NCBI GenBank assembly: GCA_913020725.1
Contig: CAJWCD010000012.1
Location: 1-38,718 of the forward strand
Source of the DNA: an uncultured Pseudomonadota bacterium
Lineage (GTDB): Bacteria > SAR324 > NAC60-12
Reading direction: 5' to 3'
Length of the DNA stretch: 38,718 nt
The position numbers and the translations under genes are program-made. Below are positions 3,231 to 31,022 of the stretch, one piece after another. Positions within the stretch are counted from its first letter, which is position 1. Each line of letters begins with the position of its first letter. The notes below the pieces were generated by a model that saw only the letters and a list, made by a program, of their open reading frames with translations, did no database searches and was not told the origin of the DNA.

Positions 3231-3286
3231 GAAATTAGTATCTTCTAAAAGATTATGAGTTTAACTTTGGATATTAATTTGTTGTA

Positions 3287-3496
3287 TTAAATTACAGTGA
3301 CGTAATATCCCATCTGATTTTGATCATTGATGAGAAGGTCTTTCGCAAGAGATTCAACTGATGCGACTCCACCGTTCTTCAGAAGGGTCATCAACATCAC
3401 AGGTTGGTAGATGTGAGACATCCTCATGCGGTTGATGAGGAAATCTTTGCGGTCAGAGAAGGTCATTTCAGATGTCTGATCAATTTCACTATCCAT
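3287..3496 (-). pseudogene. Truncated N-terminus of an HNH/HIT-domain protein
   Basis: FLINRMRMSHIYQPVMLMTLLKNGG...LAKDLLINDQNQMGYY matches my recollection of the N-terminus of HNH endonuclease/HIT fusion proteins. It stops a few codons later, where the AT-rich DMT block begins. Confidence 0.55.
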
Positions 3497-3660
3497 CGAA
3501 TCACAACGATGGGAGAAATAAAACGAATACCGAAACGGAACAATTTCAAAAATAATTGTCGGTATTCAATTCTGACATTATGTTTGTCCCTCCAAGGTTT
3601 CGTAACGATCCAAACGACTATCAGGAACAAACCTCCAAAGATCAAAATTCTAACCCACAT
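3463..3660 (-). CDS. Small membrane protein, hypothetical
   Basis: 65 aa, with an N-terminal hydrophobic helix (ILIFGGLFLIVVWIV) and a basic amphipathic tail. Same strand as its neighbours. Confidence 0.4.
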   Translation of the reverse strand: MWVRILIFGGLFLIVVWIVTKPWRDKHNVRIEYRQLFLKLFRFGIRFISPIVVIRWIVKLIRHLK

Positions 3661-3922
3661 CGTTCTGTCCCAATCCTTTGCGAGCTCTCAGGTTGATCCC
3701 AAGAATCTCACTCAGGGATTTCAATCTGTATCTGTCATCGGTCTTTCGTCTTGGTGGGAGTTTTCTCAAAGTCTCCCGAAAATTCCTCCCATGTCTTTGT
3801 CCCAATTCGGAAATCGGTCTGTCTCCCACGACTTCAAGGAACAGATTAAGTGAAATCTCATATTCCTCCAAAGTCTTCTCCTTCACTCGTCCCATTTCTC
3901 TAAGAGTTTTTCGTGCTGTCAT
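3650..3922 (-). pseudogene. Tyrosine integrase remnant (core-binding domain)
   Basis: KTLEEYEISLNLFLEVVGDRPISEL...FRETLRKLPPRR resembles integrase core-binding domains. There is an in-frame TAG just upstream and no catalytic domain. It lies about 265 bp from the tRNA 3' end. Confidence 0.6.
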
Positions 3923-4186
3923 GAATTCCTCAAACTACTTGATTTCAAGGAAATTTGAAACCCTGACTGTCCGAAGTGAGTCCTAAGATTTTTAGGGATG
4001 TAAGACCTAAAAAGGTAGGATGATGAATTACTTTTTTGAAAAACGAGACATGATTTGAACGACATGGGATTCCAACCAAATAATAGATTTTGAAATCCCC
4101 AAACTCATACTCAAACAGTAAGTGTTCAGTCTGTCAATAGGTGTTGGGAGGTGTTCATCTCCCTAAGTCATTGATATTAAATGACC

Positions 4187-8251: not shown

Positions 8252-9835
8252 ATGTATTGGGTCTGGTTGATCGCATTGGGTATTGCCATAATTGTGGTAA
8301 TTGTCCTACTAAACCGCTTTTATCGTAAAGCATCCCGTGAAGTTGCTCTGATCCGAACAGGGCTTGGCGGGCAGAAAATCATTATAGATGGGGGTTTTCT
8401 TGTTCTCCCATTTCTTCACCGTATTTCAGAAGTCAACATGAAAACGACGCGACTTGAAGTTGTTCGCGCCAATGAGAATTCGGTAATCACAGGAGATCGT
8501 CTGCGTGTAGACGTGACGGTCGAGTACTATGTGCGGGTCGATCCAAGTGACACAGGTGTCGCGACAGCAGCTCAGACCTTAGCAGGTAAAACCTTTCACT
8601 CAGATGACCTTGCTGAGACCTTGGAAGGAAAACTGGTTGATGCGTCCTTATCTGTTGCTGCCAACTACACCATGGACGAACTCCAAAACGAGCGCGGTCG
8701 GTACGTTACTCAGATCGAGGAAATTTTGAAGCCAAAGCTGTCTCAAAACGGCCTCCTATTGGAATCAGTTTCATTGACACGATTGGACCAAACACCTTTC
8801 CACACGCTCGATGAAAATAACGCATTTAACGCAGTTGGGCTTCGACGATTAGCTGAGATTGTTTCAAATAGTAAGAAAGAACGTGCTGTAATTGAGGCTG
8901 ATACGGACGTTGCAGTGCGTAAGAGTAAGCTTGCCGCCACGAAGCAGCGCCTGAATATTGAGCAGGAAGAGGAGGAGGCCCAAATACAGCAAAGGCTGAG
9001 CATTGAAAGAGAGCGTGCTGCGAGTGATGCCGCGATAGCAGAAGAGCAGTCCGGCTCTGAGCAGCGTAGAGAGATTGCAAGAATAGAAAAAGAAAAGGAG
9101 GTTAAGACAATAGAGATTCAAACTGCACGGGAAATCCGAAAGGCTGAACTGGAAGCTGCACAGTCATCTGAATTGAGACGACTTGAAAGGGAGATTGCGA
9201 TTGCTGAACAATTGGCAGAGGTGGCAAAGGCTCAGGTCAGGGTAGAAGCAGCAAAAGCAGAAGAGGTTTTGGCAAAAGAGAACACTGTGAGAACCAAGGA
9301 TGTTGCGGTCGCTGAACGTGAACGGGAGTTGGCGGTGATCCGTGCCTGTGAGCAAGCTGAGGTCGATGAGACTCGAGTTGGCAGTGAGACGGGCACTCTG
9401 CTTTCAATGGCAAAAGCTGAAGCCGATGCAATAATGACCCGAGCCGAAGCTACACGGGCCGAGTTGATGGCGAGGGCAGAGGGTGAAACGGCCTTGATTG
9501 CTTCGGAAAACAGTCAAAGTGATGATCTCATCGACATGAAATTGCAAATGCGTAAGCTGAAGATCTTGCCTGACATCGTTGAAAGCATGGTGAAACCTGC
9601 TGAAAAAATCGACAGCATTCGGATCAATCACATTACGGGGTTTGGTCAATCCGCAGGAGGTGGAGGCCAAGACGGCGGCGGGGACAAGGCAGTTGTCAAC
9701 CAGATCATGGACGGAATTCTTTCAATGGCACTGCAATTACCCGCAGTAAAGAAACTCGGCGAGGAAATTGGTGTCAATATCGGTGATGGAATCAAGGGCA
9801 TCTCTGATGAGATGTTGAAGCCTTCAGATAAATAG
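8252..9835 (+). CDS. Flotillin family (SPFH/band 7) membrane protein, YqiK-like
   Basis: N-terminal TM helix, RTGLGG, ITGDRLRVDV..YYVRV SPFH domain, DENNAFNAVG, an Ala/Glu-rich coiled coil and C-terminal VKPAEKIDSIRI. Confidence 0.92.
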   Translation: MYWVWLIALGIAIIVVIVLLNRFYRKASREVALIRTGLGGQKIIIDGGFLVLPFLHRISEVNMKTTRLEVVRANENSVITGDRLRVDVTVEYYVRVDPSDTGVATAAQTLAGKTFHSDDLAETLEGKLVDASLSVAANYTMDELQNERGRYVTQIEEILKPKLSQNGLLLESVSLTRLDQTPFHTLDENNAFNAVGLRRLAEIVSNSKKERAVIEADTDVAVRKSKLAATKQRLNIEQEEEEAQIQQRLSIERERAASDAAIAEEQSGSEQRREIARIEKEKEVKTIEIQTAREIRKAELEAAQSSELRRLEREIAIAEQLAEVAKAQVRVEAAKAEEVLAKENTVRTKDVAVAERERELAVIRACEQAEVDETRVGSETGTLLSMAKAEADAIMTRAEATRAELMARAEGETALIASENSQSDDLIDMKLQMRKLKILPDIVESMVKPAEKIDSIRINHITGFGQSAGGGGQDGGGDKAVVNQIMDGILSMALQLPAVKKLGEEIGVNIGDGIKGISDEMLKPSDK

Positions 9836-9954
9836 GTCGTAGAGCTTTCCTCTAAGATCAAGTGTTGTTTAGGCAAGCACCCTGAAACAACGCTGAGTAT
9901 CACAGCGGTTCTTTTGTAGGGGTCGTTGAAATTTTAACCAAAGGAGATCGAGTC

Positions 9955-11208
9955 ATGAAAATCAATCGAAGAAAATTTTTGAAGAGTGCCTCAGCAACTG
10001 CTGCAGTAATGGCGGCTCCTGCGTTTATCAGCCAGACGCAGGCAGCAAACTCACTGAAAATGGCTGTCATTCTTGATCAAAGCGGAGGTCTTGATATCTA
10101 TGGCCGTCCAATGGTCGATGCAAGCCATTTGGCAATCGAGGAGATCAATGCGGCGGGTGGGTTGCTGGGCAAACAGGTGGAACTCACAGTCTATGACCCT
10201 CAATCGACTATTCAGTTTTATACCCAGTACGCCACGAAAGCTGCTACTAGTGACCGAGTGGACGTGGTTCAGGCTGGAATCACGTCGGCATCACGCGAGT
10301 CAATCAGACCGTTATTGAATCGATACCGAACCCTCTATTTCTACAACACTCTGTACGAAGGAGGTGTATGCGATACCAATAATTATTGCACGGGGTCAAC
10401 TCCAGGTCAGACAGTAGAAAAACTTGTGCCCTATGCAATGAGAAAATGGGGCAAAAAGGTTTACATTATCGCTGCTGATTACAACTACGGCCATATTACA
10501 GCTAGCTGGGTTCAGAAATATGTCCGTGACAATGGTGGTGATCCTGTAGAAACGGAGTTCTTTCCGCTGGATGTCACTAACTTTGGGCCGACCATCAAAA
10601 AGATTCAGGCGGCAAAGCCAGACATGGTCATGTCTGCGTTGGTCGGCGGTGCTCATGTGTCGTTTTACCGTCAGTACGCTGCTGCTGGTATGAATAAGAG
10701 TGTGCCGGTTGCGTCTACTACCTTCGGTGTTGGCAATGAGCACAAGATGATTTCAGCCGAAGAAGGCGATGGAATGATCGTTGCCTACAGCTACTTTCAG
10801 GAAATCGAATCTGCGGATAATAAAGCGTTTGTAAAGCGGTTCCAGGATCGATTCGGAACGGATGCTCCGTACCTCAACGAACTCGCTGCACGTCAGTATG
10901 AGGGCATCTACCTTTGGGCAGAAGCTGTTAAAGCTGCCGGGACTGCTGATCGAATGAAGGTTATTGAGGCGCTTGATGCACCGACGAGCATTAACGGGCC
11001 TAGCGGTAAACTCACAATTGACCCCCAGACCCACCATGCTGTCCAGAATGTTTACTTGGCTGAACTGATGGACCAAAGATTCAACATCATTCAGACCCAC
11101 GAACAACAACAGCCGACAGATACCCAACTGGTTTGTGATCTTGTTGCCAATCCAAACCAATCGACCTTCTATTTTGAGAATGGCTTGAAGGCTGCTGGTA
11201 TCGAATAA
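9955..11208 (+). CDS. Urea/short-chain amide-type ABC substrate-binding protein (UrtA/FmdD/AmiC-like), Tat-exported
   Basis: Tat signal NRRKFLK, EEINAAGGLLG, GITSASRESIRP, YFYNTLYEGG and AADYNYG. GGAG RBS. Confidence 0.88.
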   Translation: MKINRRKFLKSASATAAVMAAPAFISQTQAANSLKMAVILDQSGGLDIYGRPMVDASHLAIEEINAAGGLLGKQVELTVYDPQSTIQFYTQYATKAATSDRVDVVQAGITSASRESIRPLLNRYRTLYFYNTLYEGGVCDTNNYCTGSTPGQTVEKLVPYAMRKWGKKVYIIAADYNYGHITASWVQKYVRDNGGDPVETEFFPLDVTNFGPTIKKIQAAKPDMVMSALVGGAHVSFYRQYAAAGMNKSVPVASTTFGVGNEHKMISAEEGDGMIVAYSYFQEIESADNKAFVKRFQDRFGTDAPYLNELAARQYEGIYLWAEAVKAAGTADRMKVIEALDAPTSINGPSGKLTIDPQTHHAVQNVYLAELMDQRFNIIQTHEQQQPTDTQLVCDLVANPNQSTFYFENGLKAAGIE

Positions 11209-11245
11209 ATTCAGTCTGTCGTTGATACTTGTTCGGAGACCGATA

Positions 11246-12115
11246 TTGGATCTCTTTGCATCCCTTGGGCTACAGATCATCTACGGCATTGCCAACCTGG
11301 TACTAATCAGTATCGGGTTGGCCGTGATTTTCGGGATGATGCGAGTGATCAATCTTGCCCACGGTGAATTCCTCATGCTAGGCGGGTACACGGTGATCGT
11401 GTCTACGAACAACGGTGTGAACATCTGGGTTGCGATGTTCATACTGGCTCCATTAATCGTAGGCATTATCGGTCTGATTGTTGAGTGGACACTAATTCGG
11501 TTTTTGTACGGCCGCATGGTCGATACACTGCTCGCAACTTGGGGACTTAGCCTATTTCTTATTGGACTCATTACGACTATATTTGGAGCGCAAACAGAAA
11601 CAACAATTGCGCCTCCTTTTGGGCCAATTTTTATCGGTGAGTACAGTTCGAGTGGTTACGAGTTGTTTCTTATAATTATTACCATCCTCCTAGTCATTTT
11701 GTTATACCTGCTATTGCGATACACCAAGTTGGGTCTGCTTGCCCGCGGAACTATGCAGTCCGCAGACATGGCGGCTGCGCTGGGCATTAGCACACAGCGC
11801 ATCTACTCGACGACCTTTGGGATCGGAGCGGCTTTATCGGGCTTTGCTGGTGGCCTGCTTGCCCCAGTCACGGGTGTATTGCCGACCATAGGAGCGGTCT
11901 ATATAGGCAAGGCATTTATTACCGTCATTTCAGGTGGCACGGCCATCCTTGCTGGAACATCGTCAGCATCATTCCTGCTTGGTGGTATAAACGGCATCGT
12001 TAGTTTTGTCGTAGGCCCAACAATGGGTGAAGTGGCGCTTCTTCTGTTCGCAATTGTCTTATTGCGATTGATGCCACGGGGCATTACTGGTCATTTCTTC
12101 AAACGAAGTCTGTGA
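11246..12115 (+). CDS. HAAT-family ABC permease (LivH/UrtB-like)
   Basis: GLAVIFGMMRVINLAHGEFLMLG and DTLLATWGLSL. The TTG at 11246 follows GGAG (the track start is 11222). Confidence 0.9.
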   Translation: MDLFASLGLQIIYGIANLVLISIGLAVIFGMMRVINLAHGEFLMLGGYTVIVSTNNGVNIWVAMFILAPLIVGIIGLIVEWTLIRFLYGRMVDTLLATWGLSLFLIGLITTIFGAQTETTIAPPFGPIFIGEYSSSGYELFLIIITILLVILLYLLLRYTKLGLLARGTMQSADMAAALGISTQRIYSTTFGIGAALSGFAGGLLAPVTGVLPTIGAVYIGKAFITVISGGTAILAGTSSASFLLGGINGIVSFVVGPTMGEVALLLFAIVLLRLMPRGITGHFFKRSL

Positions 12116-13173
12116 AGCGATCTCAGGAAACTAACGCCCTCATCTTGATCGGGATAATTGGGTTAGTCACTCTTTTTGGAGTGCCACTAACTCTTGATCT
12201 TTATTCAGTGATTAGTCTGACTACTGCGGTCAGTCTTGCCATACTTGCCCTCAGTCTCGGTTTAATCTGGGGCTTCGGAGGAATCCTCTGTTTTGGACAG
12301 ACAGTGTTTTTTGGCATCGGTGGATATGCCTATGCAATCGCAGCACTGAATTTAGGAGGCAGTGCGATTGCTATTATTGTGGCGGTACTCGTTGCTGCGG
12401 CAGCGGCAGTTTTTTTGGGTTACTTTATGTTTTACGGACGCCTAAGCGACGTATACCTTGCAGTCATCACTCTGACAGTCACCCTCATTCTCTACAGTGT
12501 AATCAGGCGAACATCTGGCCCAGAATATAAGATTGGTATTGCTAAAATTGGAGGATTTAACGGCATCAATGTGCCACCAATTAATTATCCTTGGGATGTA
12601 AACAAATTTTTGTACCCTGAAGACTTTTTCTACGTCGCCATGGTTGCTTTACTCGTTACTTATTTTTTGTGTGTGTGGTTGACAAAAACGCATTTTGGGC
12701 GAGTGTCTGAATCAATCCGCGAAAATGAGGTGCGGACAGAGCTTTTGGGGTATGACGTTCGAATTTACAAACTATGTATGTTCACCATTGGTGGTGCCAT
12801 CGCTGGACTTGCTGGGACTATGTTTGCGAATTCAATTGGGCGTATTACTCCCGATGTCTTTAACCTTTATAACGCCGCCCTGACAATCATCTGGGTCATC
12901 ATTGGAGGCCGTGGAACCCTGATAGGGCCCGTTCTTGGTGCATTGATTTTCTTTTACATTACTTCTTTACTTGGCCAGCAAAATGTTGTGAATATTAATT
13001 TATTCCTTGGGTTAGTGCTGATTATTTTTGTGCTAGTCGTGCCTAAAGGTATCGTTCCTTCGCTGGTACAGATCTGGGTCAGAAGGCGATCTCGCAGGTT
13101 GACGACGCACTCCGCTCGAAGAATGAGACGTCGCGGGCGATCCCGAGTCACAGAGGTTGCCGTTGAGGAATAA
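12112..13173 (+). CDS. HAAT-family ABC permease (LivM/UrtC-like)
   Basis: LIWGFGGILCFGQTVFFGIGGY, IRENEVRTELLGYD and WVIIGGRGTLIGP. Confidence 0.9.
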   Translation: MKRSQETNALILIGIIGLVTLFGVPLTLDLYSVISLTTAVSLAILALSLGLIWGFGGILCFGQTVFFGIGGYAYAIAALNLGGSAIAIIVAVLVAAAAAVFLGYFMFYGRLSDVYLAVITLTVTLILYSVIRRTSGPEYKIGIAKIGGFNGINVPPINYPWDVNKFLYPEDFFYVAMVALLVTYFLCVWLTKTHFGRVSESIRENEVRTELLGYDVRIYKLCMFTIGGAIAGLAGTMFANSIGRITPDVFNLYNAALTIIWVIIGGRGTLIGPVLGALIFFYITSLLGQQNVVNINLFLGLVLIIFVLVVPKGIVPSLVQIWVRRRSRRLTTHSARRMRRRGRSRVTEVAVEE

Positions 13174-13888
13174 CGTGGTACTCGAAACCCGGGCGTTATC
13201 AATGCATTTTGGGGGGGTGGTTGCGGTTGATCGGGTGGACTTTTCCCTCCGGGAAAACGAATTACGTTGTTTGATTGGTCCCAATGGTGCCGGTAAGAGT
13301 ACATTTTTTAAATGCCTCTCTGCCCAGTTGCGCCCTACGGCTGGTGACGTTGTTATCCGGGATTTTAATGTCACCGAGAGCGAGACACACCAAGTAGCCC
13401 GAATGGGAGTCGGTATCAAGACACAGGTGCCTAATGTGTTTGACGGACTGGATGTCGAAGAAAATATCTGGCTGTCAGCCAGCCAGTCAACCAGCATAAA
13501 GCGTGCTCGTGTCATAACTTCAGAGGTCATTGAGCGGCTTCAGTTAGGTAGCGTACGGAAAGCGCAGCTTGGAGCATTGGCACATGGTCAGCGGCAGTTG
13601 GTGGAACTCGGAATGGTTCTTGCCGGTGAACCATGGCTGGTGATTTTGGATGAGCCCACTGCGGGAATGACGCAGGACGAGGTTGTTCGTACAGCCGAGA
13701 TCATCCAAGAAATAAATAAAAGCGCGACTATGATCGTTGTTGAACACGATATGCAATTTATTCGAATGATCGCGCAAAAAGTCACGGTGTTTCATCAGGG
13801 GCGGATTCTGATCGAAGGTGATATGGACGAGGTGTCATCCGATGAAAGGGTCCGTGAGGTTTATCTCGGCCATCGCAGACCCCAATGA
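13157..13888 (+). CDS. ABC ATP-binding protein (LivG/UrtD-like)
   Basis: Walker A GPNGAGKST, LAHGQRQ signature, LDEPTAG Walker B and VEHDM. Confidence 0.92.
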   Translation: MPLRNNVVLETRALSMHFGGVVAVDRVDFSLRENELRCLIGPNGAGKSTFFKCLSAQLRPTAGDVVIRDFNVTESETHQVARMGVGIKTQVPNVFDGLDVEENIWLSASQSTSIKRARVITSEVIERLQLGSVRKAQLGALAHGQRQLVELGMVLAGEPWLVILDEPTAGMTQDEVVRTAEIIQEINKSATMIVVEHDMQFIRMIAQKVTVFHQGRILIEGDMDEVSSDERVREVYLGHRRPQ

Positions 13889-16227
13889 GTGACGCATTTA
13901 TCCTTAATGTTCGTGATTTGCACGCAGGCTACGGTCGTGTTCCCGTACTGCATGGGGTTGACCTCTCTGTCAAAGAAGGTCAGATCGTTGGGGTTTTGGG
14001 CCACAACGGCATGGGCAAGACCACACTGCTGAAGACGTTGATGGGAATTCTCCCGGTTACCTCCGGTCGGATACAGTTTGACGGAATGGATATTTCTCAT
14101 GAACCGACGCATGAACGCTCACGGCTTGGGATCGGGTATGTGCCGCAGGGTCGTGGAATATTTCCTCAGTTATCGGTCTACGACAATTTGAGAATGGGAG
14201 TCGTGGAGCATGGCGAGGACGAAAACGAAGCCATTGAATCCGTGTTGCAGGAGTTTCCACAGCTTCAACCCCTCTTGGATCGCTCAGGAGGTGCTCTGAG
14301 TGGAGGCGAACAGCAGATTCTGGCGTTGGCACGCTGCCTGATCAGCAAACCGGACTTGGTGCTCTTGGATGAGCCTACAGAAGGAATTCAACCTTCTATT
14401 GTCGATGGCATCATTGAACTGCTAAAACGACTCAACACAGAGCAGGGACTCACGGTCGTTCTGGTTGAACAGAATTTGGAATTCATCACATCCTTGTCCG
14501 ACCGTGTATTACTGTTGCAGAAAGGTTATATCACGGGTGAAGTGGGTGACGGTCAGTCGTCAGACTCAGAACTTATTGAAGGATTCGTGGGTTTTGGATC
14601 CGGCTCATCAGCACCTGTTCGTACAAATCACGCTGAACCACCTAGAGCAACTCCACCTGAAGCAACTCCATCTCAAACGATGGAAATACAACACAAACAA
14701 AGGTTTGACTATATGAGTGTCAAGAGACCTACCCATGATCAGTTGAAGCAGATCACCTTAGATTTGGGAATGCACCTGTCTGATGAACGGACCGCCGAGT
14801 TCTTGGATGTCATGGAAGATACGATGAAAGTCTATGACTTAATCGACACCATGCCCGACTATCTACCAAAGGTAGATTACCCAAGAACACCAGGTTATCG
14901 ACCACCACCAGAAGAAAACCCGCTAAACGCTTGGTACATAAAATGTGAGGTAAAAGGTGCCCTACGTGGACCACTCACTGGAAAATCCATTGTATTAAAA
15001 GACAATATCAGCCTAGCTGGTGTGCCGATGATGAATGGTGCATCGACTCTTGAGGGATATATACCGGATATTGATGCTACTGTCGTCACACGAATTCTGG
15101 ATGCAGGTGGCATTATCGCTGGAAAAGCACACTGTGAATATTTTTGCCTTTCAGGAGGGAGTCACACCAACGCTACGGGACCTTGCCACAACCCTCATAA
15201 GATGGGTTATTCGGCTGGAGGTTCCTCTTCAGGACCCGGCGCGCTGGTCGGTGCTGGTGAAATCGATATGGCCATAGGCGGAGATCAGGGTGGTTCAATC
15301 CGCATGCCTGCTTCCTACAGTGGTTGTTACGGATTGAAACCTACCCATGGATTGGTGCCTTATACAGGCGTTATGCCCATCGAGACCACTATTGACCACA
15401 TCGGACCCATGACGCAGAATGTCGCAGATAACGCGCTTCTGCTTGAGGTGATTGCTGGACAAGATGGTCTTGACCCTCGGCAGTATGCACCCAAAGTAGA
15501 TCATTACACATCTGCCTTGGGTCGCGGGGTTCGCAGTCTGAAAATAGGGGTAGTACAGGAAGGATTCGGACGTCCGGAATCAGAGTCGGATGTTGATGCT
15601 AAGGTGCGCACAGCCTCTGACAAGTTTCGTGAGTTGGGTGCAAATGTGGAAGATATTTCGATTCCCATGCACAACGAAGGCGCAGCTATCTGGACTCCAA
15701 TTGCACTCGAAGGTCTGACTAATCAGATGATGAATGGAAACGGATTTGGTACAGGCTGGAAAGGTCTCTATTCGACAAGCCTGCTGGACCATCATTCAAA
15801 CTGGCGGAACCGAGCCGACGAGTTATCTGACACGCTGAAGGTCTGTATGTTCATTGGGGAATATTTTCTCCGGCACTACCGTGGTCATTTTTACGCAAAG
15901 GCTCAGAACCTCAGTCGAAAACTAAAAAAGACCTATGACGATTTTCTCGATCAGTATGATCTTCTGTTAATGCCGACACTTCCGATGAAAGCAACGCCAC
16001 TGCCTCCGCGAGACGCGCCGCTTGCACTCTATTGCCAAAGGGCATTTGAGATGCTTGGTAATACCTCTCCATTCGATGTAACAGGGCATCCAGCGATGTC
16101 GATCCCTTGCGGGATGAGTGAAGGTCTGCCGGTAGGAATGATGCTGATTAGTCGCGACTACGGCGAATCTACGATCTATCAGGCAGCGCATGCCTTCGAG
16201 CAACTAGAAAACTGGAAACAAATGTAG
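13885..16227 (+). CDS. Fusion of an ABC ATPase (LivF/UrtE-like) and an amidase-signature family amidase
   Basis: aa 1-~237 contain [23 protein letters not shown] and VEQN, followed by a Pro/Ser linker. From M277 (14713) the amidase has VLKDN, CEYFC, GGSSSG and GGDQGGSIR (Lys-cisSer-Ser triad). Confidence 0.9.
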
Positions 16228-16228
16228 A

Positions 16229-17989
16229 TTGGTTACTGATAAAAAGTATCAACGTATGGTTGTAGTTAAGACTGGTTTGGAATCTTCTAATTTGAGTCTA
16301 GGGTCGAAGCTTGCCCATGTCAAAGGTGCATCGTACCCCGATCTGGAAGAGATCACGATCCCAGATTTCTTTGCACGTACTGTATCCCGTTATCCAAACC
16401 GGGAGGCCTGTGTTTTTAAAAAATCCGGTGAATGCTGGACGTGGCTTGAATTGGCTCGAAAAATCGATCAACTATCAGCAGGGCTACTTGCCTTGGGCAT
16501 CTACAAAGGGGAGCGGGTTGGGATCCTGTCACCCAACAGGCCAGAATGGGTGCTTACTCAGTTCGCTACGGCTCGCATCGGTGCAATCCTCGTCAATATC
16601 AACCCAGCTTACCAGCGGGCGGAGTTAGAATATGCTTTGGTTAAAGTCGGTGTTAAGGCTCTGATAACTGCGGAGTCATTCAAGTCAAGCGGATACCTCA
16701 AGATGTTGGTCGACCTTGCACCTGAACTCTCCAAAAGCAGACCGGGACGGCTGGCTGCGGCCAAGTTTCCACTGCTCAAATCCGTCATTCAGACCGGTGA
16801 TGCTCATGTCCAAGGCATGTTCAGATTTGTGGATGTGATGGCGAAGGGAGGCAGTGGACAGCAAGCACGTTTAGACGCCATTGGGCGTAAGTTGTTTGTC
16901 GATGAACCGATTAATCTACAGTTCACTTCAGGGACGACTGGCTCGCCTAAGGCTGCCACGTTGACTCACAGAAATGTCGTGAATAATTCGCGTTATGTCG
17001 CCAAGTGCATGAATCTTTCTCAAAAAGATAGACTTTGTATTCCGGTACCTCTTTATCACTGCTTCGGTATGGTACTCGGAAACCTGACTTGTGTCGCTGC
17101 CGGAAGTACCATGGTTTTTCCAGGCGAAGGGTTTGATGCCCTACAAACACTGGAAACTCTGGATAAGGAGCGTTGTACCGCTGTCCATGGTGTGCCGACC
17201 ATGTTCAGTGCCATGGTGAATTGCCCTGAATTTTCTCAATTTGACTTACAGAAACTCAGAACTGGGATCATGGCGGGTGCTCCCTGCCCAATTGAACTCA
17301 TGACTCAGGTGGTATCAAAGATGAACCTTAGACAAATGACGATTGCTTACGGCATGACCGAGACCAGTCCCGTGTCGTTCCAGAGCGCTGTAAACGATCC
17401 GATCGAACGTCGAGTATCGACAGTTGGAAGAATCCAACCGCATGTGGAAGCTAGGGTCGTGGATACATCAGGTGAGATTGTTGCCGTTGGGGAACAAGGC
17501 GAACTGCATACCAGAGGTTACCATGTGATGCGTGGATACTGGGATGATCCAGAGCGCACTGCCGTGTCAATCGACGCTGAAGGATGGATGCATACCGGGG
17601 ATCTTGCGAGTATTGATGCCGAAGGCTATTGCAACATCGTTGGTCGGGTAAAAGATATGCTGATTCGGGGTGGCGAAAATGTTTATCCAAGGGAGATCGA
17701 GGAGTTTCTCCTAGGACATCCTGAAGTTCAGGATGTCCAGATTTTTGGGGTTCCGGATGAGAAATACGGTGAGGAAATTTGTGCTTGGATCGTCCCAGTT
17801 TCAGGGACTCAACTATCGCTAGAAAATATCCGAAACTACTGTGAAGGGCAGATTGCACACTACAAAATACCCCGGTACGCAAAAATGGTCCCAGAATTTC
17901 CAATGACTGTGACAGGTAAGCCTCAAAAATATGTCATGCGTGAAAAGATGATCGAAGAATTGAAATTGACTGAGATGGCTACAGCCTAG
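16229..17989 (+). CDS. AMP-dependent acyl-CoA synthetase (ACSF2/YngI-like)
   Basis: [48 protein letters not shown] and [10 protein letters not shown]. The start could be the ATG at 16256. Confidence 0.92.
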
Positions 17990-18141: not shown

Positions 18142-19464
18142 TTACTTGCCGACAGCGGCCTTCGCCTCTTGCTGGCTTTTGCGCTTGGCCTCGATGAGCC
18201 GCAGTTTGTCCTCAAGGTTCTCGCGCTTCATCATGCAGTTGCGGGCTTTTTCGGAAAGCCCCTGATCCATGTAGAGATGCTCTAGCAAGCTGAGCAGCAG
18301 CACCATCTGCCGCGCTCGCTCCAGTGGTTGCACCCGTGCTTGCTTGAGGGCGGCAAGTCCGAGCAGGGCGTGCTTGGTTGCTAGCTTGGTTTCATCCCGG
18401 TGCGAGAGGTTGAAGGCGATTTGGTACTGGGCGCGGTGTCGGTTTCCAAAACGTGGCCTTGTGCAAGCCTGCATGTAGAGCCAGTTCGCTTGGCGGATCA
18501 GTGAGTTTAGCGTCTTGCGGATAGCCACGGGACTTTTGCCCGTGAGCGGCAGAAGCGGCCGTTCGGGGTAGCGGAAGTTGTAGCGGTGGACGAAGGACTG
18601 GAGCTTGCCCATGTCCTTGATCGTGTCCCGCTCCGGCTCGCCGAGGACAACTTTTGCGTAGAAGTCGATCATGCGCTGCATCACCATCGCTTGCCGGAAC
18701 AGCAATTCACCATGTTGCGCCTGATGCACTTGGGGCTGCAACTCCTGAAGGATGCGGATGAACTCCAGCATCTGGATAAACGCCTCATAGTAGCGGTGCC
18801 CCTGAAGATAGAGCCGGATGATGCGCTCGCGGGAGATGAGGTCTTGGGGATTCTTCTTTTCCACCAGAACCTTGCCCATTTCCCGTTGCACATCTCGCTC
18901 AATGTAAAATGCTGCCCGATTCATGAAGGCCGTTGCCTTGAACACGGTGGTGCAAAGCGCAGCGGAGGTGAGATTCAGCCGGTCTGGGGAAACCTCAATC
19001 GCCATTGATGCGAAATCGAGTGCCTGATAGAGTAGGAAACGCTGACGCTCAAGGTTGCTCTGCTCCATTGCTGCGGCTTCAAGCAGGACACGGCCAATCA
19101 CCTCCAAGCAGTTCGGCCCATGCTCTGGCAGCTTCAGGTAGAGAATCATGGCTTCATGGAGCATCCGGGTCATCTCCACCACCGAAGGGTTTTTGTTCTG
19201 GAGCAGATCCGTGACATGTGCAACCGAGGCGTGTTCGCGGCGGCTGAAGAAGCGGTGCTGGCGCTTGCGGTCCCAGTCCAGCACCTTTTGGGTGATTGGC
19301 TTGCCCTGAGCGTCGAAAGCGAACTCAAAGCAGGTGTTGACTCCGGGGCGTGGAGTGGGCCGAGGCGGCGGAGCGTCCTGCGGCTCTTCCGGAACAGAAG
19401 AGGCAGATGGCTCCCCGGCAATGCGGTCGGCGAGGGACTCGACGTGTTGTTCGAGCAGGGACAT
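18142..19464 (-). CDS. Hypothetical all-helical protein (440 aa)
   Basis: Long ORF with host-like GC-rich codons and an amphipathic helical composition. No family recognised. Confidence 0.75.
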   Translation of the reverse strand: MSLLEQHVESLADRIAGEPSASSVPEEPQDAPPPRPTPRPGVNTCFEFAFDAQGKPITQKVLDWDRKRQHRFFSRREHASVAHVTDLLQNKNPSVVEMTRMLHEAMILYLKLPEHGPNCLEVIGRVLLEAAAMEQSNLERQRFLLYQALDFASMAIEVSPDRLNLTSAALCTTVFKATAFMNRAAFYIERDVQREMGKVLVEKKNPQDLISRERIIRLYLQGHRYYEAFIQMLEFIRILQELQPQVHQAQHGELLFRQAMVMQRMIDFYAKVVLGEPERDTIKDMGKLQSFVHRYNFRYPERPLLPLTGKSPVAIRKTLNSLIRQANWLYMQACTRPRFGNRHRAQYQIAFNLSHRDETKLATKHALLGLAALKQARVQPLERARQMVLLLSLLEHLYMDQGLSEKARNCMMKRENLEDKLRLIEAKRKSQQEAKAAVGK

Positions 19465-19960: not shown

Positions 19961-20208
19961 GTGGCCGTTAAGTGGGATTCGCTCTGGGGTGCTTTGATGC
20001 GTCCACAGAGTCCGGATTTATGAAAATGGGTCGCATTTTGAGACTCCACATCCTTCTCGTCCTAAAAACTGCTCGACTGTGCAAGTGAACCGGGAAACAC
20101 GGCGACGGGGTTTCGCCATGAGAAAGGTTGGGCTTGCACCAGCAGCGTGACTCCCAAAATCCAGGATTTTCTTGTGAGGCGTTTGAACCTCTCATCGAAC
20201 CAACTGTT

Positions 20209-20964
20209 ATGATCCGTTCTCGATTCAGCCCTCTTGCTCTGCCGTTTCTGGTAGTGGCCACTGTTCTGCTGCTGTGCGTGTCCGTCACGCCGGCTTGGGC
20301 AAACCCCAAGCTGATCGAGCAACCAATCGCGTTCAGCCACAAGCTGCACGTCTCCCAGAATGGGATCGCGTGTCAGTACTGCCACCTCTACGCCCGGCGT
20401 TCGTTTTCCGCAGGCGTTCCTCCGGTCAGCACCTGTGTGGGTTGCCACGGTAGCAACGAGATGAAGATCGTCGCTCCGGACAGCGCCGAGGTGAACAAGA
20501 TGCGCGACTACTGGGCACAGAGCGAGCCGATCCCTTGGGCCAAGATACATGACATTCCGGATTTTGTGCGCTTCCCTCACAAAAAACACATCAATGCAGA
20601 AAGCAGCCGCTTTGTGGATGAAGCTGGACAAGGTTGCGACCTAGACAAGGCGCCACGTTCGCTGGAATGCCGACTCTCCCTGTTCCGAGCTGGAGGCGAC
20701 CAACGTTGTCAGGCCTGCCACGGAGCAATTCCCCAGATGGAGGTGGTTTACAAGGTTGACGACAATTTTGGAAGCATGGGCTGGTGCCTCGAATGCCACC
20801 TCCAAGTTGACGGGGCCGTGGAACGCAAACGGGCCGGAAGCACCTTAGCTGGATGGTTCCATGCTAAAGAGAATGATGCCAAACGCGAAGCCGCCGCGCA
20901 ACTTGTGAGCGACAAGGGGTACCACAACTCCAACCTGAGTGACTGCGTCACTTGCCACTACTGA
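20209..20964 (+). CDS. actA: Alternative complex III pentaheme cytochrome c subunit
   Basis: EQPIAFSHKLH, five CxxCH motifs (CQYCH, CVGCH, CQACH, CLECH, CVTCH), IPWAKIHDIPDFVRFPHKKH and SMGWC. Likely start is the ATG at 20209. Confidence 0.9.
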   Translation: MIRSRFSPLALPFLVVATVLLLCVSVTPAWANPKLIEQPIAFSHKLHVSQNGIACQYCHLYARRSFSAGVPPVSTCVGCHGSNEMKIVAPDSAEVNKMRDYWAQSEPIPWAKIHDIPDFVRFPHKKHINAESSRFVDEAGQGCDLDKAPRSLECRLSLFRAGGDQRCQACHGAIPQMEVVYKVDDNFGSMGWCLECHLQVDGAVERKRAGSTLAGWFHAKENDAKREAAAQLVSDKGYHNSNLSDCVTCHY

Positions 20965-20995
20965 CCAAAACACCCGGAAGTTTTAGGAGATACGC

Positions 20996-23986
20996 ATGAA
21001 AAAAGGGCTGAGTCGGCGAAACCTGTTCAAGTACATGGGACTCGGCGGGGTCACTGCCGTTGCCGCAGGTTGCGAGCAGAAGCCAGAAAAGCTGATCCCC
21101 ATGTTGGTTCCGCCCAATGACTTCGAGTACACCCCGCAGACCGCGTACCAGTACATGACCACCTGCCGCGAGTGCGAAGCGCGTTGCGGTATGATGGTGA
21201 CGGTGCGGGAAAACCGGGCGCAAAAGGCGGAGGGCAATCCGCTGCACCCCCTCAACAACGGGGCGCTGTGCGCACGGGGTCAGGCCTCGATGCAGAACCT
21301 CTACAACCCTGAGCGCGTTGCCCAACCCGGAAGTGGCCGTGGCGATGCTCGTAAATCGGTTTCGTGGGAAGACGCCCTCAAGCAGTTCGTCAACAAGGTT
21401 CGCAGTGCTAACGGCAAAGTCGTGTACCTCGGCAAGCCCACCTCCGGAAGTGAAGGTCGTTTTCTGGACGAGTGGCTGAAGTCTGTGGGTGGGGGCAGTC
21501 GCATCGAGTTCAGCCTGCTGAATCAGAACGCCCAGCGTGAAGCGAACCGCCTCGCCTTTGGTCGCAGCGACCTTCCGGAACTGTACTTTGAGGAAGCGAA
21601 ATTGCTGCTCAACTTCAGCAGTGATTTTCTGGAAACGTGGGGCAACCCTGTCGAGCAGGCACGGCGTTTCACGGACATGCACGCCTACGAGGGCAAGGAT
21701 CGCCACCGCTTCATCCACATCGGCCCACACATTTCGCTGACCGGTGCCAAGGCTGACCGCTGGTTGCAAATCCAACCGGGGTCTGAAGCCCTTGTCGCAC
21801 TTGCGATTGCTTCGGTGATCCGGGCAAAGCAAGGCAGCCACGCTTGGTTGGCATCCTACCTCGGCAATTACAGCCCTGCAAAAGTTGCAGACGCCACCGG
21901 AGTTTCCGCTGAGAAAATCACGGAACTCGCAGAGGATGTGATGGAACACAGCCCCAGTCTCGCGCTGGGGGGCAGCAGCATTGCCGCGACAAAGGACGGA
22001 CTGGCGCTGCACAATGCCGTCAACATCCTCAACACCGTCGCGGGCAACCTCAACAAAACTGTTCGCTTCAACCGTACTTCCGGATCAGTGCCCAGTTCGC
22101 ACGGCGATGTGGTTGCGCTGATCAACGAACTCAACGCTGGCAAGGTCAAGCTGCTCATCGTGGACGACAGCAACCCGGCCTACGCGCTTCCAGCCTCATT
22201 TGGGTTTGCAGCAGCAGCAGAAAAGACGTTTGTCGTCAGCCTCTCCTCGTTGCAGAGCGAGACGGAACACGCTGCCGACCTTGTGCTTCCAGCCCTCACG
22301 GCTTACGAAACGTGGGGCGACGCCACGCCGCGTCCGGGCCTTTACAGCATCCAACAGCCCGTGATGGCTCCGGTCAACACCTTTGACGCCCGCGGGCGCG
22401 AAGATGTGCTGATCGCTACCGCCCAGCAGGTCAACCCGCAGGCGTTTCCTGATTTGGCAAGCTATCTGGATTACCTCCGGAACGCTTGGCAGGACGTGCA
22501 GCAGGCGGTCGGCGATTCCCAAAATTTCGAGAACTTTTGGATTTCGGCCTTGGAGTCCGGAGGCGTGTTCCAGTCCTCGCGTTCGTCTCAGGTCAACCTC
22601 AGGCGGCGAGTCACCCAAGTGCAAACCTCGGCTCCAAACGTTGGCGGTTCCGGATTGGTGTTGTTGCCCTCCCCCTCCCTGTTTATGGGAGACGGAAGTG
22701 GGGCCAACAAGCCGTGGTTGCAGGAAACTCCCAATCCGATCAGCCAGATCGTTTGGGATTCGTGGGTGGAGATCAACCCGGACACGGCCCAGAAGCTGGG
22801 CATCACCGACCGCGAGTTGGTCACGGTCAAGACACCTCAAGGAGAAATTCAGGGCACTGCTTACTTCCACTTTGGCATCCACCGCGATGCCATCGCCATC
22901 CCGCTGGGGCAAGGGCACCAGCACTCCGGGAAGGCCGCAAACGACTACGGTGTCAACGTGCTGGACCTGCTTCCGGCCACACTGGACGCCGCCGGAAGCG
23001 TGGCGTTCGTCAGCACACGGGCCGAGATCACTGGAACCGGAGAGCGCACCTACACCGTCAACACGGACGGCAATGCTCGACAGCTTGGGCGCGACATTGC
23101 GGCTGCGACCACGGAAAAGGAACTGCATAACGGCAAACACCACGAGGCGGGGCACCGTCCGCAGGAGATCGTCGAATTCTACCCGGATCGTGCCGAAACC
23201 GCTGGCTACTACAAGCCCTACCGCTGGGGGATGACGATTGACCTCGACCGCTGCAACGGCTGCTCGGCTTGTGTGGTCGCGTGTTATTCGGAGAACAACC
23301 TTCCGGTGGTGGGCAAGGAGCGCATGGCGCTTGGGCGGGAGATGTCATGGTTGCGCATGGAACGCTACATCGAGGGCTACGGGGATGATTTTGAAACTCG
23401 AATGGTTCCAATGCTCTGCCAACAGTGCGGCAACGCCGGCTGTGAGGTGGTCTGCCCAGTCTATGCGACCTACCACAATCCGGAAGGGATCAACGCGATG
23501 ATCTACAATCGTTGCGTGGGGACTCGTTATTGCTCAAACAACTGCGCGTACAAGGTCCGGCGCTTTAACTGGTTTAACTACGATTTCCCTGCTCCTCTGG
23601 ATCAGCAACTGAACTCGTCCATCACCACCCGCGATGTTGGAGTGATGGAGAAGTGCAACTTCTGCATGGGGCGCATCATGGATGCAAAGTATCAAGCGCA
23701 GGAGCTTGGGCGCGATGTCCAAGACGGCGAGTTGGTGAGCGCATGTCAGCAAACATGCCCGACACAGGCGATCACGTTTGGGAACCTCATGGACCCGGAG
23801 AGCAAAGTCTCGAAACTAGCCATGCGCGACGAGCAAGAAAAGCGAGACCGCCAGTATGAGGTCATGCCCGAACTCAACTACAAGCCTGCCATCACCTACC
23901 TCAAGAAGGTGAACACACGGGAAGTGCAGGGGCTGCACGGCGGGAACAAGGGCAGCGAACACAACGGCGACGAAAGTCACTCATAA
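20996..23986 (+). CDS. actB: Alternative complex III molybdopterin-oxidoreductase-like / Fe-S fusion subunit
   Basis: Tat signal SRRNLFK with AAGC, EGNPLHP, ANKPWLQETP, WGMTIDLDRCNGCSACVVAC, CQQCGNAGC, RCVGTRYCSNNC and MEKCNFC. Confidence 0.92.
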   Translation: MKKGLSRRNLFKYMGLGGVTAVAAGCEQKPEKLIPMLVPPNDFEYTPQTAYQYMTTCRECEARCGMMVTVRENRAQKAEGNPLHPLNNGALCARGQASMQNLYNPERVAQPGSGRGDARKSVSWEDALKQFVNKVRSANGKVVYLGKPTSGSEGRFLDEWLKSVGGGSRIEFSLLNQNAQREANRLAFGRSDLPELYFEEAKLLLNFSSDFLETWGNPVEQARRFTDMHAYEGKDRHRFIHIGPHISLTGAKADRWLQIQPGSEALVALAIASVIRAKQGSHAWLASYLGNYSPAKVADATGVSAEKITELAEDVMEHSPSLALGGSSIAATKDGLALHNAVNILNTVAGNLNKTVRFNRTSGSVPSSHGDVVALINELNAGKVKLLIVDDSNPAYALPASFGFAAAAEKTFVVSLSSLQSETEHAADLVLPALTAYETWGDATPRPGLYSIQQPVMAPVNTFDARGREDVLIATAQQVNPQAFPDLASYLDYLRNAWQDVQQAVGDSQNFENFWISALESGGVFQSSRSSQVNLRRRVTQVQTSAPNVGGSGLVLLPSPSLFMGDGSGANKPWLQETPNPISQIVWDSWVEINPDTAQKLGITDRELVTVKTPQGEIQGTAYFHFGIHRDAIAIPLGQGHQHSGKAANDYGVNVLDLLPATLDAAGSVAFVSTRAEITGTGERTYTVNTDGNARQLGRDIAAATTEKELHNGKHHEAGHRPQEIVEFYPDRAETAGYYKPYRWGMTIDLDRCNGCSACVVACYSENNLPVVGKERMALGREMSWLRMERYIEGYGDDFETRMVPMLCQQCGNAGCEVVCPVYATYHNPEGINAMIYNRCVGTRYCSNNCAYKVRRFNWFNYDFPAPLDQQLNSSITTRDVGVMEKCNFCMGRIMDAKYQAQELGRDVQDGELVSACQQTCPTQAITFGNLMDPESKVSKLAMRDEQEKRDRQYEVMPELNYKPAITYLKKVNTREVQGLHGGNKGSEHNGDESHS

Positions 23987-24027
23987 TCTGACTCCATGAG
24001 ATACCTTAGGCAGAGAGGAGAACCATT

Positions 24028-25488
24028 ATGGGGGTGATCACCTACGACTACAACGCGGCTGAAGGCCGGGTGGTGATTGACGAACACAAGGGACATCCGG
24101 GCATTGAGAGTACGACTTACTCCTATGCCAAGATCAACGATGAGATGTTGGCGATGTTGGAAATACCGCGTCCATCGTACCTGCTGCTGCTGCTCGGTTT
24201 TCTCAGCGCACTGGGGCTAGGCGCGCTCTGCCTCTCGATTCAGGTGGACGTTGGCATCGGTTACAGCGGCATCAGCCATCCCATTGGCTGGGGTTTCTAC
24301 ATCACCAACTTCGTCTTCTGGATTGGAATTGGACACGCTGGAACCCTGATCTCGGCAGTTTTCTATCTCACCCGTGCTCCGTGGCGCACCGCGATTTACC
24401 GGGCCGCAGAGGCTATGACCGTCTTTGGGGTGATGACCGCAGGGCTCTTCCCGCTGCTGCACACCGGACGCCCGTGGTTGGCCTATTGGCTCATTCCCTA
24501 TCCGAACGAGCGGATGCTCTGGGTGAACTTCAAATCACCCCTGCTCTGGGACGTGTTTGCCGTCACCACCTACCTGACGGTTTCGGTGCTGTTCTTCATG
24601 CTCGGGTTAATCCCGGATATGGCGATTCTGCGGGATGAAGCCTTCCGCAAGGGCCAGAAACTCAAGGGGATGCTTTACACGCTGATGGCGCTCAACTGGC
24701 GAGGCACCAACCACCAGTGGGTCCACTACATGCGTGGCTATCTGATTTTCGCCGCCCTTGCCACCCCGCTCGTCTTCTCGGTCCACTCCATCGTGAGTTG
24801 GGACTTTGCGATGTCCTCGGTTCCGGGTTGGCACACCACAATCTTTGCCCCGTATTTCGTTGCTGGCGCGATCTTCTCCGGGCTCGCGATGGTGATGACC
24901 GTGCTGATTCCCGTTCGAGTGGTCTTTGGATTGGAGGGTTACATCACGGATCATGTCATACAAAGTGTCTGCAAAGTGATCCTCTTCACCTCGTTCATCG
25001 TGGGTTATGCCTATGGCACTGAGTTCTTCATCGGCTACTACAGCGGTAGCCCTTACGAGCGAGCGATCTTCTACTACCGGCCTTTCGGGGAGATGCAAAG
25101 TTGGACATTGCTGGGCGACAACCAGATCAACTTTCCACAAATCGCTTTCTGGCTGATGGTCTTCTGTAATGTCATCTCACCCATCCCGCTCTGGCGTTGG
25201 AAGGTGCGTAACAACCTTATTGCAGTCTGGATCATCTGCGTGTTGATCAATGTGGGCATGTGGTTTGAGCGTTTCAACATCGTAGGCAGTTCCCTCCAGC
25301 ATGAGTATGTCCCCGCCGCTTGGGGCGAGTACTGGCCGACTATTGTTGAAACCGGTATCACGATCGGCAGCTTCGGCTTCTTCTTTACGCTCTTCACTCT
25401 CTTCGCCAAGGCACTGCCGCCGATGGCGATCACGGAGTTAAAGGAAAACACTGAACCACCCTTGCAAAATCCACCGAAGGAACACTGA
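24028..25488 (+). CDS. actC: Alternative complex III NrfD/PsrC-type quinol-binding membrane subunit
   Basis: ITNFVFWIGIGHAGTLISA, HTGRPW, NFKSPLLWDVFAV, SVHSIVSWDFA, PYFVAGAIFSG and GMWFERF. Confidence 0.95.
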   Translation: MGVITYDYNAAEGRVVIDEHKGHPGIESTTYSYAKINDEMLAMLEIPRPSYLLLLLGFLSALGLGALCLSIQVDVGIGYSGISHPIGWGFYITNFVFWIGIGHAGTLISAVFYLTRAPWRTAIYRAAEAMTVFGVMTAGLFPLLHTGRPWLAYWLIPYPNERMLWVNFKSPLLWDVFAVTTYLTVSVLFFMLGLIPDMAILRDEAFRKGQKLKGMLYTLMALNWRGTNHQWVHYMRGYLIFAALATPLVFSVHSIVSWDFAMSSVPGWHTTIFAPYFVAGAIFSGLAMVMTVLIPVRVVFGLEGYITDHVIQSVCKVILFTSFIVGYAYGTEFFIGYYSGSPYERAIFYYRPFGEMQSWTLLGDNQINFPQIAFWLMVFCNVISPIPLWRWKVRNNLIAVWIICVLINVGMWFERFNIVGSSLQHEYVPAAWGEYWPTIVETGITIGSFGFFFTLFTLFAKALPPMAITELKENTEPPLQNPPKEH

Positions 25489-26009
25489 TGAGCAGATTCA
25501 CGGGCGTCTGGGGCTCCTTCACCCACTTGGACGCAACCACCGACACCATTGAGCAGGTGCGCGACAAGGGAGTGCAGCCCACCGTGCTTTCTCCGTGCCC
25601 GCGTCATGAGATTGAGCATGCTCTCGGAGATCCGCAGAGTTCCGTTCCTTGGATTGCACTCGTGTGTGGAGCAATGGGGACATTCATCGGCTTTAGCTTT
25701 CCGGCATGGACTGCTTCGGACTGGGTGCTTCCCGTCAGTGGAAAACCGATTGTCGCAATTCCTACATTTGCAATCATCGGTTTCGAACTGACCATCCTGC
25801 TCGCTGCGCTCTCCACCTTGCTTGGACTGAGCTTGCTTGCGGTTTTTGATTCCTTCAAGAACCCCATTCCAACAGCGGCCAAACGCTACCTGCGTTTCCA
25901 GCGCGATCGCTTCGGCGTGGTGGTTCGCTGTGACTCTGCCCAAGCAGAGGAGTTCGCGGAAATCCTCAGGCGCAACGGTGCAGAGGAGGTGCATGTTGAA
26001 AAAGACTGA
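25488..26009 (+). CDS. actD: Alternative complex III subunit D (DUF3341)
   Basis: SPCP, VSGKP, IIGFELTILLAA, DRFGVVV and GAEEV. Located directly after actC. Confidence 0.88.
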   Translation: MSRFTGVWGSFTHLDATTDTIEQVRDKGVQPTVLSPCPRHEIEHALGDPQSSVPWIALVCGAMGTFIGFSFPAWTASDWVLPVSGKPIVAIPTFAIIGFELTILLAALSTLLGLSLLAVFDSFKNPIPTAAKRYLRFQRDRFGVVVRCDSAQAEEFAEILRRNGAEEVHVEKD

Positions 26010-26682
26010 AGGGTTTCGGATGGGGAAGGTCACTTCGTTGCTGGCAGTGCTGCTGCTTGGTAGCGTCACCCTTGCTAGTGCGGCGGATCTCTATCCTTAC
26101 TTTGATCCGCAAAAAGGCGGTTACAACGATGAGGAGGACGACCGACCGTGGTTTGACGGGAAACCCTACCCCTTTTTTCAGGACATGTTCGACGGTAAGG
26201 GGATCAAGCCACAAGAAGAGGGCACCTATCAGCACTTCCCCAGCACTTCCGTGCCCATCCGGATCGTTCTCGGAAAAATCCAGCGCATCTACGATCCGTT
26301 CATTCCGGCGGTGGCGGGAGACGGTTCCGGAGCCAAAGGCCATCCGCGTGAGTATTCACCGCAGAACCCCACCCGTGCTACTCCGGATTCCACCGCCCGC
26401 GGTCGTATGCTCTACAACACCTACTGCGCGGCGTGTCACGGCACGGACGGCTTGGCCAACACGGTCGCAGTCCAGAAGGGCGTGCCCGCCCCCCCGATTG
26501 TGGCGATTGTCAAGATTTCCACAGCACAGTCCCATCTCTACAACAAGATCAAGTACGGCTCTTTCTTCCAAGAACCGAGGGGGTTCATGCCCGCCTTTGG
26601 CGCACAGACCTCCGTGAGAGACCGCTGGGACATGGTCAACTACTTGATAAGTGAAGGATTCGGCAAGGAGATCACGCAATGA
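25993..26682 (+). CDS. actE: Alternative complex III monoheme cytochrome c subunit
   Basis: GAGGAGG RBS before the ATG at 25993, DMFDGKGIKPQE, RGRMLYNTYCAACHG, MPAFG and DRWDMVNY. Confidence 0.88.
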   Translation: MLKKTEGFRMGKVTSLLAVLLLGSVTLASAADLYPYFDPQKGGYNDEEDDRPWFDGKPYPFFQDMFDGKGIKPQEEGTYQHFPSTSVPIRIVLGKIQRIYDPFIPAVAGDGSGAKGHPREYSPQNPTRATPDSTARGRMLYNTYCAACHGTDGLANTVAVQKGVPAPPIVAIVKISTAQSHLYNKIKYGSFFQEPRGFMPAFGAQTSVRDRWDMVNYLISEGFGKEITQ

Positions 26683-30920: not shown

Positions 30921-31022
30921 CTCAACGGAACCAGAACGACGGTCTGACTTCATGAAACTCCGATCACAGAGAACCCCCTTGCCGTCTTGGGCGGAGCATG
31001 AGAGAATCGTTTTCCTGTTTGA

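Follow-up and report, generated by a model that had tools for sequence, protein, structure and literature searches.

Does a gene that joins the ATPase of a nutrient importer to an amidase encode one real protein, and what would the join do for the cell? The question is raised by a 780-amino-acid open reading frame (ORF) at positions 13885-16227 (+) of a 38,718-nucleotide stretch of DNA, hereafter the window, from an uncultured bacterium of the SAR324 lineage (GenBank assembly GCA_913020725.1, contig CAJWCD010000012.1). An initial annotation, made from the letters alone, had described it as an ATP-binding cassette (ABC) transporter ATPase covalently fused to an amidase. The ORF was found to be a real, old and conserved fusion of a UrtE/LivF-like ATPase and a PRK07235 amidase, and its sequence makes it likely that the gene yields two products, the tethered fusion and a free amidase starting at M277.

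A conserved fusion of an importer ATPase and an amidase

The ORF runs in a single frame without interruption, as the initial annotation had stated, and both domains were recovered by profile searches. Pfam placed ABC_tran at residues 22-165 (E 5e-35) and Amidase at residues 356-764 (E 1e-91), while in NCBIfam the amidase part (residues 277-779) scored 809 bits against PRK07235/NF005565, whose cut-off is 545, and the ATPase part scored 268 bits against the UrtE profile, under its cut-off of 286. By domains, motifs and a structure model, the ATPase domain comprises residues 1-237 (13885..14595); the amidase comprises residues 277-780 (14713..16227), that is, 504 amino acids from M277. The ATPase motifs are intact and of the LivF/UrtE type, with Walker A (GHNGMGKT, residues 39-46), Q-loop, signature, Walker B with its catalytic Glu, and the VEQ switch (VEQN); the H-switch position is occupied by Q, as it also is in all 11 unfused ATPases shown in the comparison. 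The amidase carries a Ser-cisSer-Lys triad and the GGSS(S/G)G signature of the PRK07235 amidase-signature subfamily, from which amidase activity is predicted. Both the intact ATPase and the full-length amidase with its triad that had been claimed for this ORF are thus present. Among 142 fused proteins, Walker A was found in 140, the ABC signature in 142 and Walker B in 135, and on the amidase side KDN in 142, GDQGGS(I/V)R in 141 and an exact GGSSSG in 124. A CX3C motif (C417-EYF-C421), present in 134 of the 142, has been tied to nitrile cleavage in signature amidases in the available part of one report (PMC8393822).

An AlphaFold model of the fusion had a mean predicted local distance difference test score (pLDDT) of 67.5 and a predicted template modelling score (pTM) of 0.54, with no interpretable contact between the domains, and a Foldseek search with this model returned the two expected families only. 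RhAmidase of Rhodococcus sp. N-771 (PDB 3A1K/3A1I) was both the best sequence match (E 5e-137) and rank 1 in Foldseek (43% identity). It shares the triad with the fusion's amidase (K372, S447 and S471 align with K96, S171 and S195 of 3A1K), its N-terminal helical region aligns as well, and it is described as a dimer of ~107 kDa in the accessible text of PMC11732141. It differs in being a free 521-amino-acid enzyme, whereas the amidase studied here follows an importer ATPase in one polypeptide and is likely also made free.

An assembly error or a recent loss of a stop codon as the source of the fusion was rejected, and we assign it a negligible probability. Contigs from three of four DNA runs (X8, X9 and X12, from three studies, each possibly the source of this DNA itself) cover the whole ORF unbroken, with 1-2 substitutions and no insertion, deletion or stop; the fourth run (X3), of which 57% was read, gave no real cover of the ORF. 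One RNA-library contig crosses the fusion junction (14451-14931), and RNA-library contigs from four studies cover parts of the surrounding gene cassette, although such contigs can neither rank genes, show an internal promoter nor rule out carry-over of DNA. In the search for further examples of the architecture, all of the best 120 whole-protein matches, the ORF's own cluster included, contained both domains at 65-100% identity, which places the same arrangement in 119 other 90%-identity clusters. At the genome level, 78 of 80 loci were fused and the other two were open at a contig edge. No stop was seen near 14600, and fused forms occur in Alphaproteobacteria, in Gammaproteobacteria and in the host's own order.

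Since a whole-protein query favors fusions, the search was repeated with the amidase alone. Of its best 120 matches, 111 were fused and nine were stand-alone entries of 504 amino acids. One of the nine could be placed (L146, match at 2501-4012); it descends from the fusion but stands alone, with unrelated DNA in place of the ATPase part and with a linker remnant of ~105 nucleotides (nt) kept along with a stronger Shine-Dalgarno (SD)-like site, and it therefore reflects a rearrangement rather than a new stop. The same query met 80 loci in metagenomes; fused genes accounted for 60, while 10 lay at a contig edge, three were cut inside the amidase, four lacked an upstream ATPase and three were split, with a separate UrtE, in near-identical outgroup operons at 65% identity. 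In a sample of 401 genomes from one alphaproteobacterial class, a close amidase was present in 41, in both fused and unfused form. The fusion occurs in many marine and soil bacteria, including the cultured Sulfitobacter sp. THAF37, where it lies on a plasmid and is labeled in RefSeq merely as 'amidase' (WP_152467583.1).

The fusion likely arose once, from a single origin. In a reduced tree of 36 rows the fused amidases formed one clade (SH-aLRT 96); this tree omitted six long-branch rows, five close duplicates, five 504-amino-acid proteins without context, three rows cut at an edge and 23 of the 45 fused rows. Against it stands a quick tree of 78 rows, in which the monophyly of the fused amidases was not resolved.

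The families of all components are known, and it is their arrangement, with importer ATPase and amidase in one gene, that is new. The cassette has the same five-part layout and ATPase types as UrtABCDE and LivKHMGF-type (HAAT) importers. The same gene order is seen in split operons of the form MarR-AmiC-SBP-B-C-D-E plus amidase (Tistrella mobilis pTM2, Pleomorphomonas pSM30-1), whose orthologous transporters are 48-62% identical (10 of 12 operons) and whose amidases are 59-69% identical; they differ by a stop after the ATPase and by the absence of flotillin and ligase genes in 12 of 12, and are known from annotations only. In the nitrile pathway of Pseudomonas chlororaphis B23, an amidase is reportedly followed by an acyl-CoA synthetase (amide to acid to acyl-CoA), with no fused importer ATPase. 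Importer ATPases carrying regulatory add-ons are known; no paper on an importer ATPase bearing a substrate-consuming enzyme, or on this fusion or cassette, was found in the open-access literature as judged by titles and the starts of abstracts. A fusion of CbiZ to BtuD, considered as a precedent, found no confirmation in the literature consulted and was set aside. An ABC importer and a separate amidase share a single operon for amide use in the MeAmi operon (bioRxiv 10.1101/2024.02.22.581678) and in urtABCDE beside amiE/fmdA (PMC13209695); in the available portions of these two sources the binding-protein or amidase families are other ones and no ATPase-amidase fusion is seen.

The linker and the start of the amidase

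The two domains are joined by residues 238-276 (14596..14712), 39 amino acids that extend from the EFxGF end of the ATPase to M277. By alignment the linker is hypervariable, with lengths of 32-99 amino acids in the 74 loci scored, and it is predicted to be disordered (pLDDT <50 across residues 236-279). The length of roughly 40 residues given in the initial annotation was correct, but its description as a Gly/Ser/Pro linker was not, since the 73 fused linkers compared are rich in Ala, Pro and Ser (A, 22%; P, 16%; S, 10%; G, 9%). The same source had favored a protein linker over read-through intergenic DNA. Here the evidence points the other way: in 11 split operons the ATPase stops just past EFxGF, 17-372 nt ahead of the amidase ATG, and because the unfused relatives end where the linker begins, it most likely originated long ago as an intergenic spacer read through after loss of the UrtE stop. 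An in-frame 15-bp tandem duplication had also been reported (14646-14660/14661-14675). The repeat is there, but it is imperfect (13/15; Tandem Repeats Finder [TRF], 14638-14670, 2.2 copies, 88%) and is missing from the closest relatives, whose proteins are likewise 780 amino acids long; it is therefore incidental and lineage specific, and was rejected as a meaningful feature of the linker.

When the linker DNA was read off frame, stops appeared in 63 of 146 readings (43%), whereas no in-frame linker stop was seen among 60 fused close relatives or 78 genome loci. Given DNA this prone to stops, and a reversion to the split state that looks costless, we infer that the join has been kept by selection. 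Disorder (pLDDT <50, pTM 0.54) and variable length argue against a fixed interface between transporter and enzyme and make a tunnel unlikely; proximity or trapping only is plausible. The earlier proposal of an enzyme tethered to the cytoplasmic exit of the transporter thus holds to the extent that the ATPase assembles, as its intact motifs suggest, while its extension to strict substrate channeling is unlikely with a linker of this kind.

The earlier reading of the gene had overlooked a conserved internal ribosome-binding site and ATG at the domain boundary. Because the amidase retains its own ATG and an SD-like site in frame, two products are likely, and we consider it quite probable that the pair is a functional internal start. 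The first Met of the amidase is retained in 116 of 120 proteins. Pairing with the anti-SD sequence at or below -3.5 kcal/mol was found at 76 of 78 fused loci, the window included, versus 595 of 2417 other in-frame ATGs (the motif used was generic, and locus L009, where the start pattern failed, was excluded), and at 54 of 59 versus 412 of 1734 in a second set that overlaps the first in kinship; 13 of 13 representatives below 80% identity also reached this value. Arg codons at positions -5 to -2 were AGG in 51 of 60 cases, compared with 17 of 272 across the remaining linker and 160 of 3535 elsewhere. The GG core of the site occurs in each of three codon phases and with varying amino acids, a pattern that suggests a constraint on the RNA. 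Its spacing from the ATG is fixed, with G at -11 and -10 in 81-89%, and the mRNA fold is weaker at the amidase ATG (-6.0 versus -9.6 kcal/mol). The first Met has been lost in loci L093 and L188 and in proteins P0055, P0060, P0072 and P0085, all with a longer linker that contains a Met farther upstream; in L093 the new start is an AAGGAG-ATG 58 codons upstream.

It is distinctly unlikely, in our estimate, that only the full fusion is made, with the SD-like site a vestige or an inter-domain ribosome pause and the Met structural. The Met is missing from four of 120 proteins, and some sites are weak; however, the fixed spacing and open mRNA fold, the compensating SD-ATG pair in L093, and the use of the same junction by the derived stand-alone amidase L146 all argue for initiation. 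Several details nevertheless tell against a second product. The window's own site (AAAGG, 14699-14703, with a rare AGG Arg codon) is weak at -3.8 kcal/mol and the mRNA around its ATG is not notably unfolded (-7.6), weak pairing was also seen at two divergent fused loci (L114, -3.5; L115, -1.7), and the AGGAG serving the substitute ATG of L188 lies 13 nt away. Synonymous reshuffling was significant per locus in only 16 of 78, a weak result that reflects the purine preference of the amino acids concerned (ER, EG and QE). One gene giving a full-length and a C-terminal product that form a hetero-oligomer is known from the phage endolysins CTP1L (PMC4777826) and LysP7951 (PMC9430671); as far as the available text of these reports goes, their short product is usually a binding domain, whereas here it is predicted to be a whole enzyme within a transporter gene.

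Operon, substrate and proposed function

The fusion lies in a cassette of seven genes, all on the + strand. A flotillin gene comes first (8252..9835; SPFH/Band_7 and Flot by Pfam, YqiK-like), followed by a TAT-type periplasmic binding protein of the UrtA/AmiC fold (9955..11208), which scored below both urea cut-offs and has a predicted carboxamide pocket. Pfam and NCBIfam then identify a UrtB/LivH-like permease (11222..12115, start codon uncertain), a UrtC/LivM-like permease (12112..13173) and a UrtD/LivG-like ATPase (13157..13888), whose stop overlaps the fusion start in an ATGA. The fusion gene itself, defined by its domains, relatives and contigs, is followed by an acyl-CoA ligase (16229..17989, probable start 16256), which is PRK12583-like with 826 bits against a cut-off of 832.

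An ATGA- or GTGA-type junction between the UrtD stop and the fusion start was found in 56 of 64 fused loci. Every one of the 65 fused loci with 5 kb or more of upstream sequence had the flotillin gene, and 64 of 71 had the acyl-CoA ligase directly downstream. Among hand-picked operons, all 11 fused ones had the flotillin gene and 10 of the 11 had the ligase gene, whereas neither gene occurred in any of the 12 split ones. The flotillins of fused loci have diverged to 37-58% identity, yet the association has persisted. An AmiC-like sensor and a MarR gene stand ahead of many loci, and the neighborhood often holds a second amidase, a formamidase/acetamidase or an isochorismatase-family hydrolase. 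In Rubrimonas cliftonensis (L009:11094-12624) a second amidase-like gene takes the place of the ligase directly after the fusion, and a gammaproteobacterial locus (L028:4936-8000) has an insert of ~3 kb between urtC and urtD.

Urea was rejected as the substrate. All five subunits fell below the Urt profile cut-offs (UrtA, 244 against 493; UrtB, 206 against 250; UrtC, 182 against 296; UrtD, 252 against 304; UrtE, 268 against 286), and unlike in UrtABCDE the UrtE subunit carries a fused enzyme. A search of this genome, which is 93% complete, gave no urease match above the cut-off. In UrtA, the essential residues S122 and Y190 hold the carbonyl and one nitrogen of urea, while N246 holds the other nitrogen and is positioned by W120, according to the available part of PMC10392092. 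When these positions were mapped onto the cassette's binding proteins by sequence alignment, W120 was replaced by I in 63 of 63 and N246 by V in 62 of 63, while the equivalents of S122, Y141, E146 and Y190 were invariant (S and Y kept in 63 of 63); the Q144 equivalent was kept in 40 of 63 and is L in this window. Since two essential urea contacts are replaced while S122 and Y190 are kept, a pocket for R-CONH2 is predicted, and the imported substrate is likely a small carboxamide rather than urea. A nitrile hydratase alpha subunit, a possible source of amides, is encoded on another contig of the genome (G000:C10:6151-6771, L081).

With confidence that is about evenly balanced, we propose that the importer ATPase-amidase fusion, in its flotillin-importer-amidase-ligase operon, has two products and serves local capture of the substrate by proximity. 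The binding protein would capture small R-CONH2, and UrtD together with the fused UrtE would power its import. At the cytoplasmic face of the transporter, the tethered amidase would hydrolyze the amide near the exit to a charged acid and ammonium, and the ligase would fix the acid as its CoA thioester, so that a small uncharged substrate could not leak back. The free amidase would either pair with the tethered copy or supply bulk cytoplasmic enzyme; pairing is suggested because the closest solved amidase is homodimeric and a transporter of this type holds one UrtE-type subunit. Flotillin would cluster the complexes, which would make proximity worthwhile. We infer, in short, that import and hydrolysis are coupled locally, through the closeness of transporter and enzyme and not through a tunnel.

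Several considerations weigh against this proposal. Both products, the dimer and the substrate are predictions. Small amides cross a cell by diffusion in milliseconds, and a flexible tether alone would therefore give little kinetic gain. The fused loci are kin, probably of one origin, so that their counts are not independent; the flotillin link may be a single inherited gene-order event, and the ligase is missing from seven of 71 loci.

Other readings of the same evidence were weighed. A stronger form, in which the cassette is an import-and-trap machine whose importer carries its own enzyme, with the dimer completed by the internal-start subunit and the whole clustered by flotillin beside the ligase, is possible but tentative. 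It is rather unlikely that the amidase domain instead regulates or organizes the transporter, with ligand binding or dimerization switching the ATPase or cross-linking transporters into flotillin-held clusters. Regulatory C-terminal domains on the importer ATPases MalK, MetN and CmpC/NrtC offer precedents, the amidase family is dimeric, so that two tethered copies could link two transporters, and flotillin accompanies fused operons exclusively. A linker unconstrained in sequence and length (32-99 amino acids), with its low pLDDT and the pTM of 0.54, is better suited to a tether, however, and the nearly complete conservation of the catalytic triad also speaks against a purely regulatory role.

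We regard as quite improbable a frozen accident, in which a single loss of the UrtE stop left the amidase still translated from its own start, with the fused tail tolerated as a passenger. The read-through origin is well supported, cultured strains of Tistrella and Pleomorphomonas carry this transporter in split operons, and a free amidase would suffice for catabolism. Yet under this explanation an easy and harmless reversion by a linker stop would be expected, and none was seen in the 60 close relatives or 78 genome loci, even though 43% of off-frame readings of the linker contain a stop.

Probable transfer of the cassette, its surroundings and its significance

The cassette (8252-17989) forms an island of low G+C content at third codon positions (0.44-0.53, versus 0.72-0.74 for three host genes). 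Its nearest relatives, at 85-90% identity, are in metagenome-assembled genomes of Acidiferrobacteraceae/Arenicellales, and the amidase was not found when two genomes of the same genus as the host (92% and 89% complete) were queried. One host protein neighboring the cassette has a close relative labeled SAR324. The cassette was likely acquired horizontally, from Arenicellales/Acidiferrobacteraceae-like bacteria into a SAR324-type host.

At its left edge, after the stop of a hydrolase gene, lies a perfect 18-bp inverted repeat (7804-7821/8103-8120, arms 281 nt apart). The element within the repeat is single copy, with one similar arm on contig C24, and is possibly a mobile-element remnant or a regulatory site. 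Immediately past the cassette, the opposite strand carries a 440-amino-acid ORF without a Pfam or NCBIfam match (18142-19464, -), and beyond it lies an alternative complex III-like respiratory operon (20128-27959; multiheme cytochrome, molybdopterin/Fe-S subunit, NrfD and ActD). A DUF4143 fragment at 30266-30955 is apparently out of frame and probably a broken gene. Positions 1-4000 of the window form a second low-GC stretch (31-41%), in which the ORF at 235-1035 combines cadherin-like domains with an unrelated-looking C-terminal part and could reflect a chimera, a rearrangement or a misjoin; a YgjP-like metallopeptidase gene follows it.

The organization of the cassette suggests that amides are probably hydrolyzed at the transporter itself as they are imported. 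Since fused and split versions both occur in nature, and a cultured host carries the fusion on a plasmid, the gene lends itself to a clean genetic test of whether an enzyme's attachment to a transporter helps a cell retain a membrane-permeant nutrient. To our knowledge, Gram-negative flotillins have rarely been linked to a defined cargo, and this cassette ties flotillin to one. The cassette, which is present in seawater RNA libraries, points to a marine amide as a source of nitrogen or carbon. If the tentative import-and-trap reading were true, amides prone to leakage would become ammonium and acyl-CoA on entry, in a manner resembling group translocation that would suit life in dilute waters.

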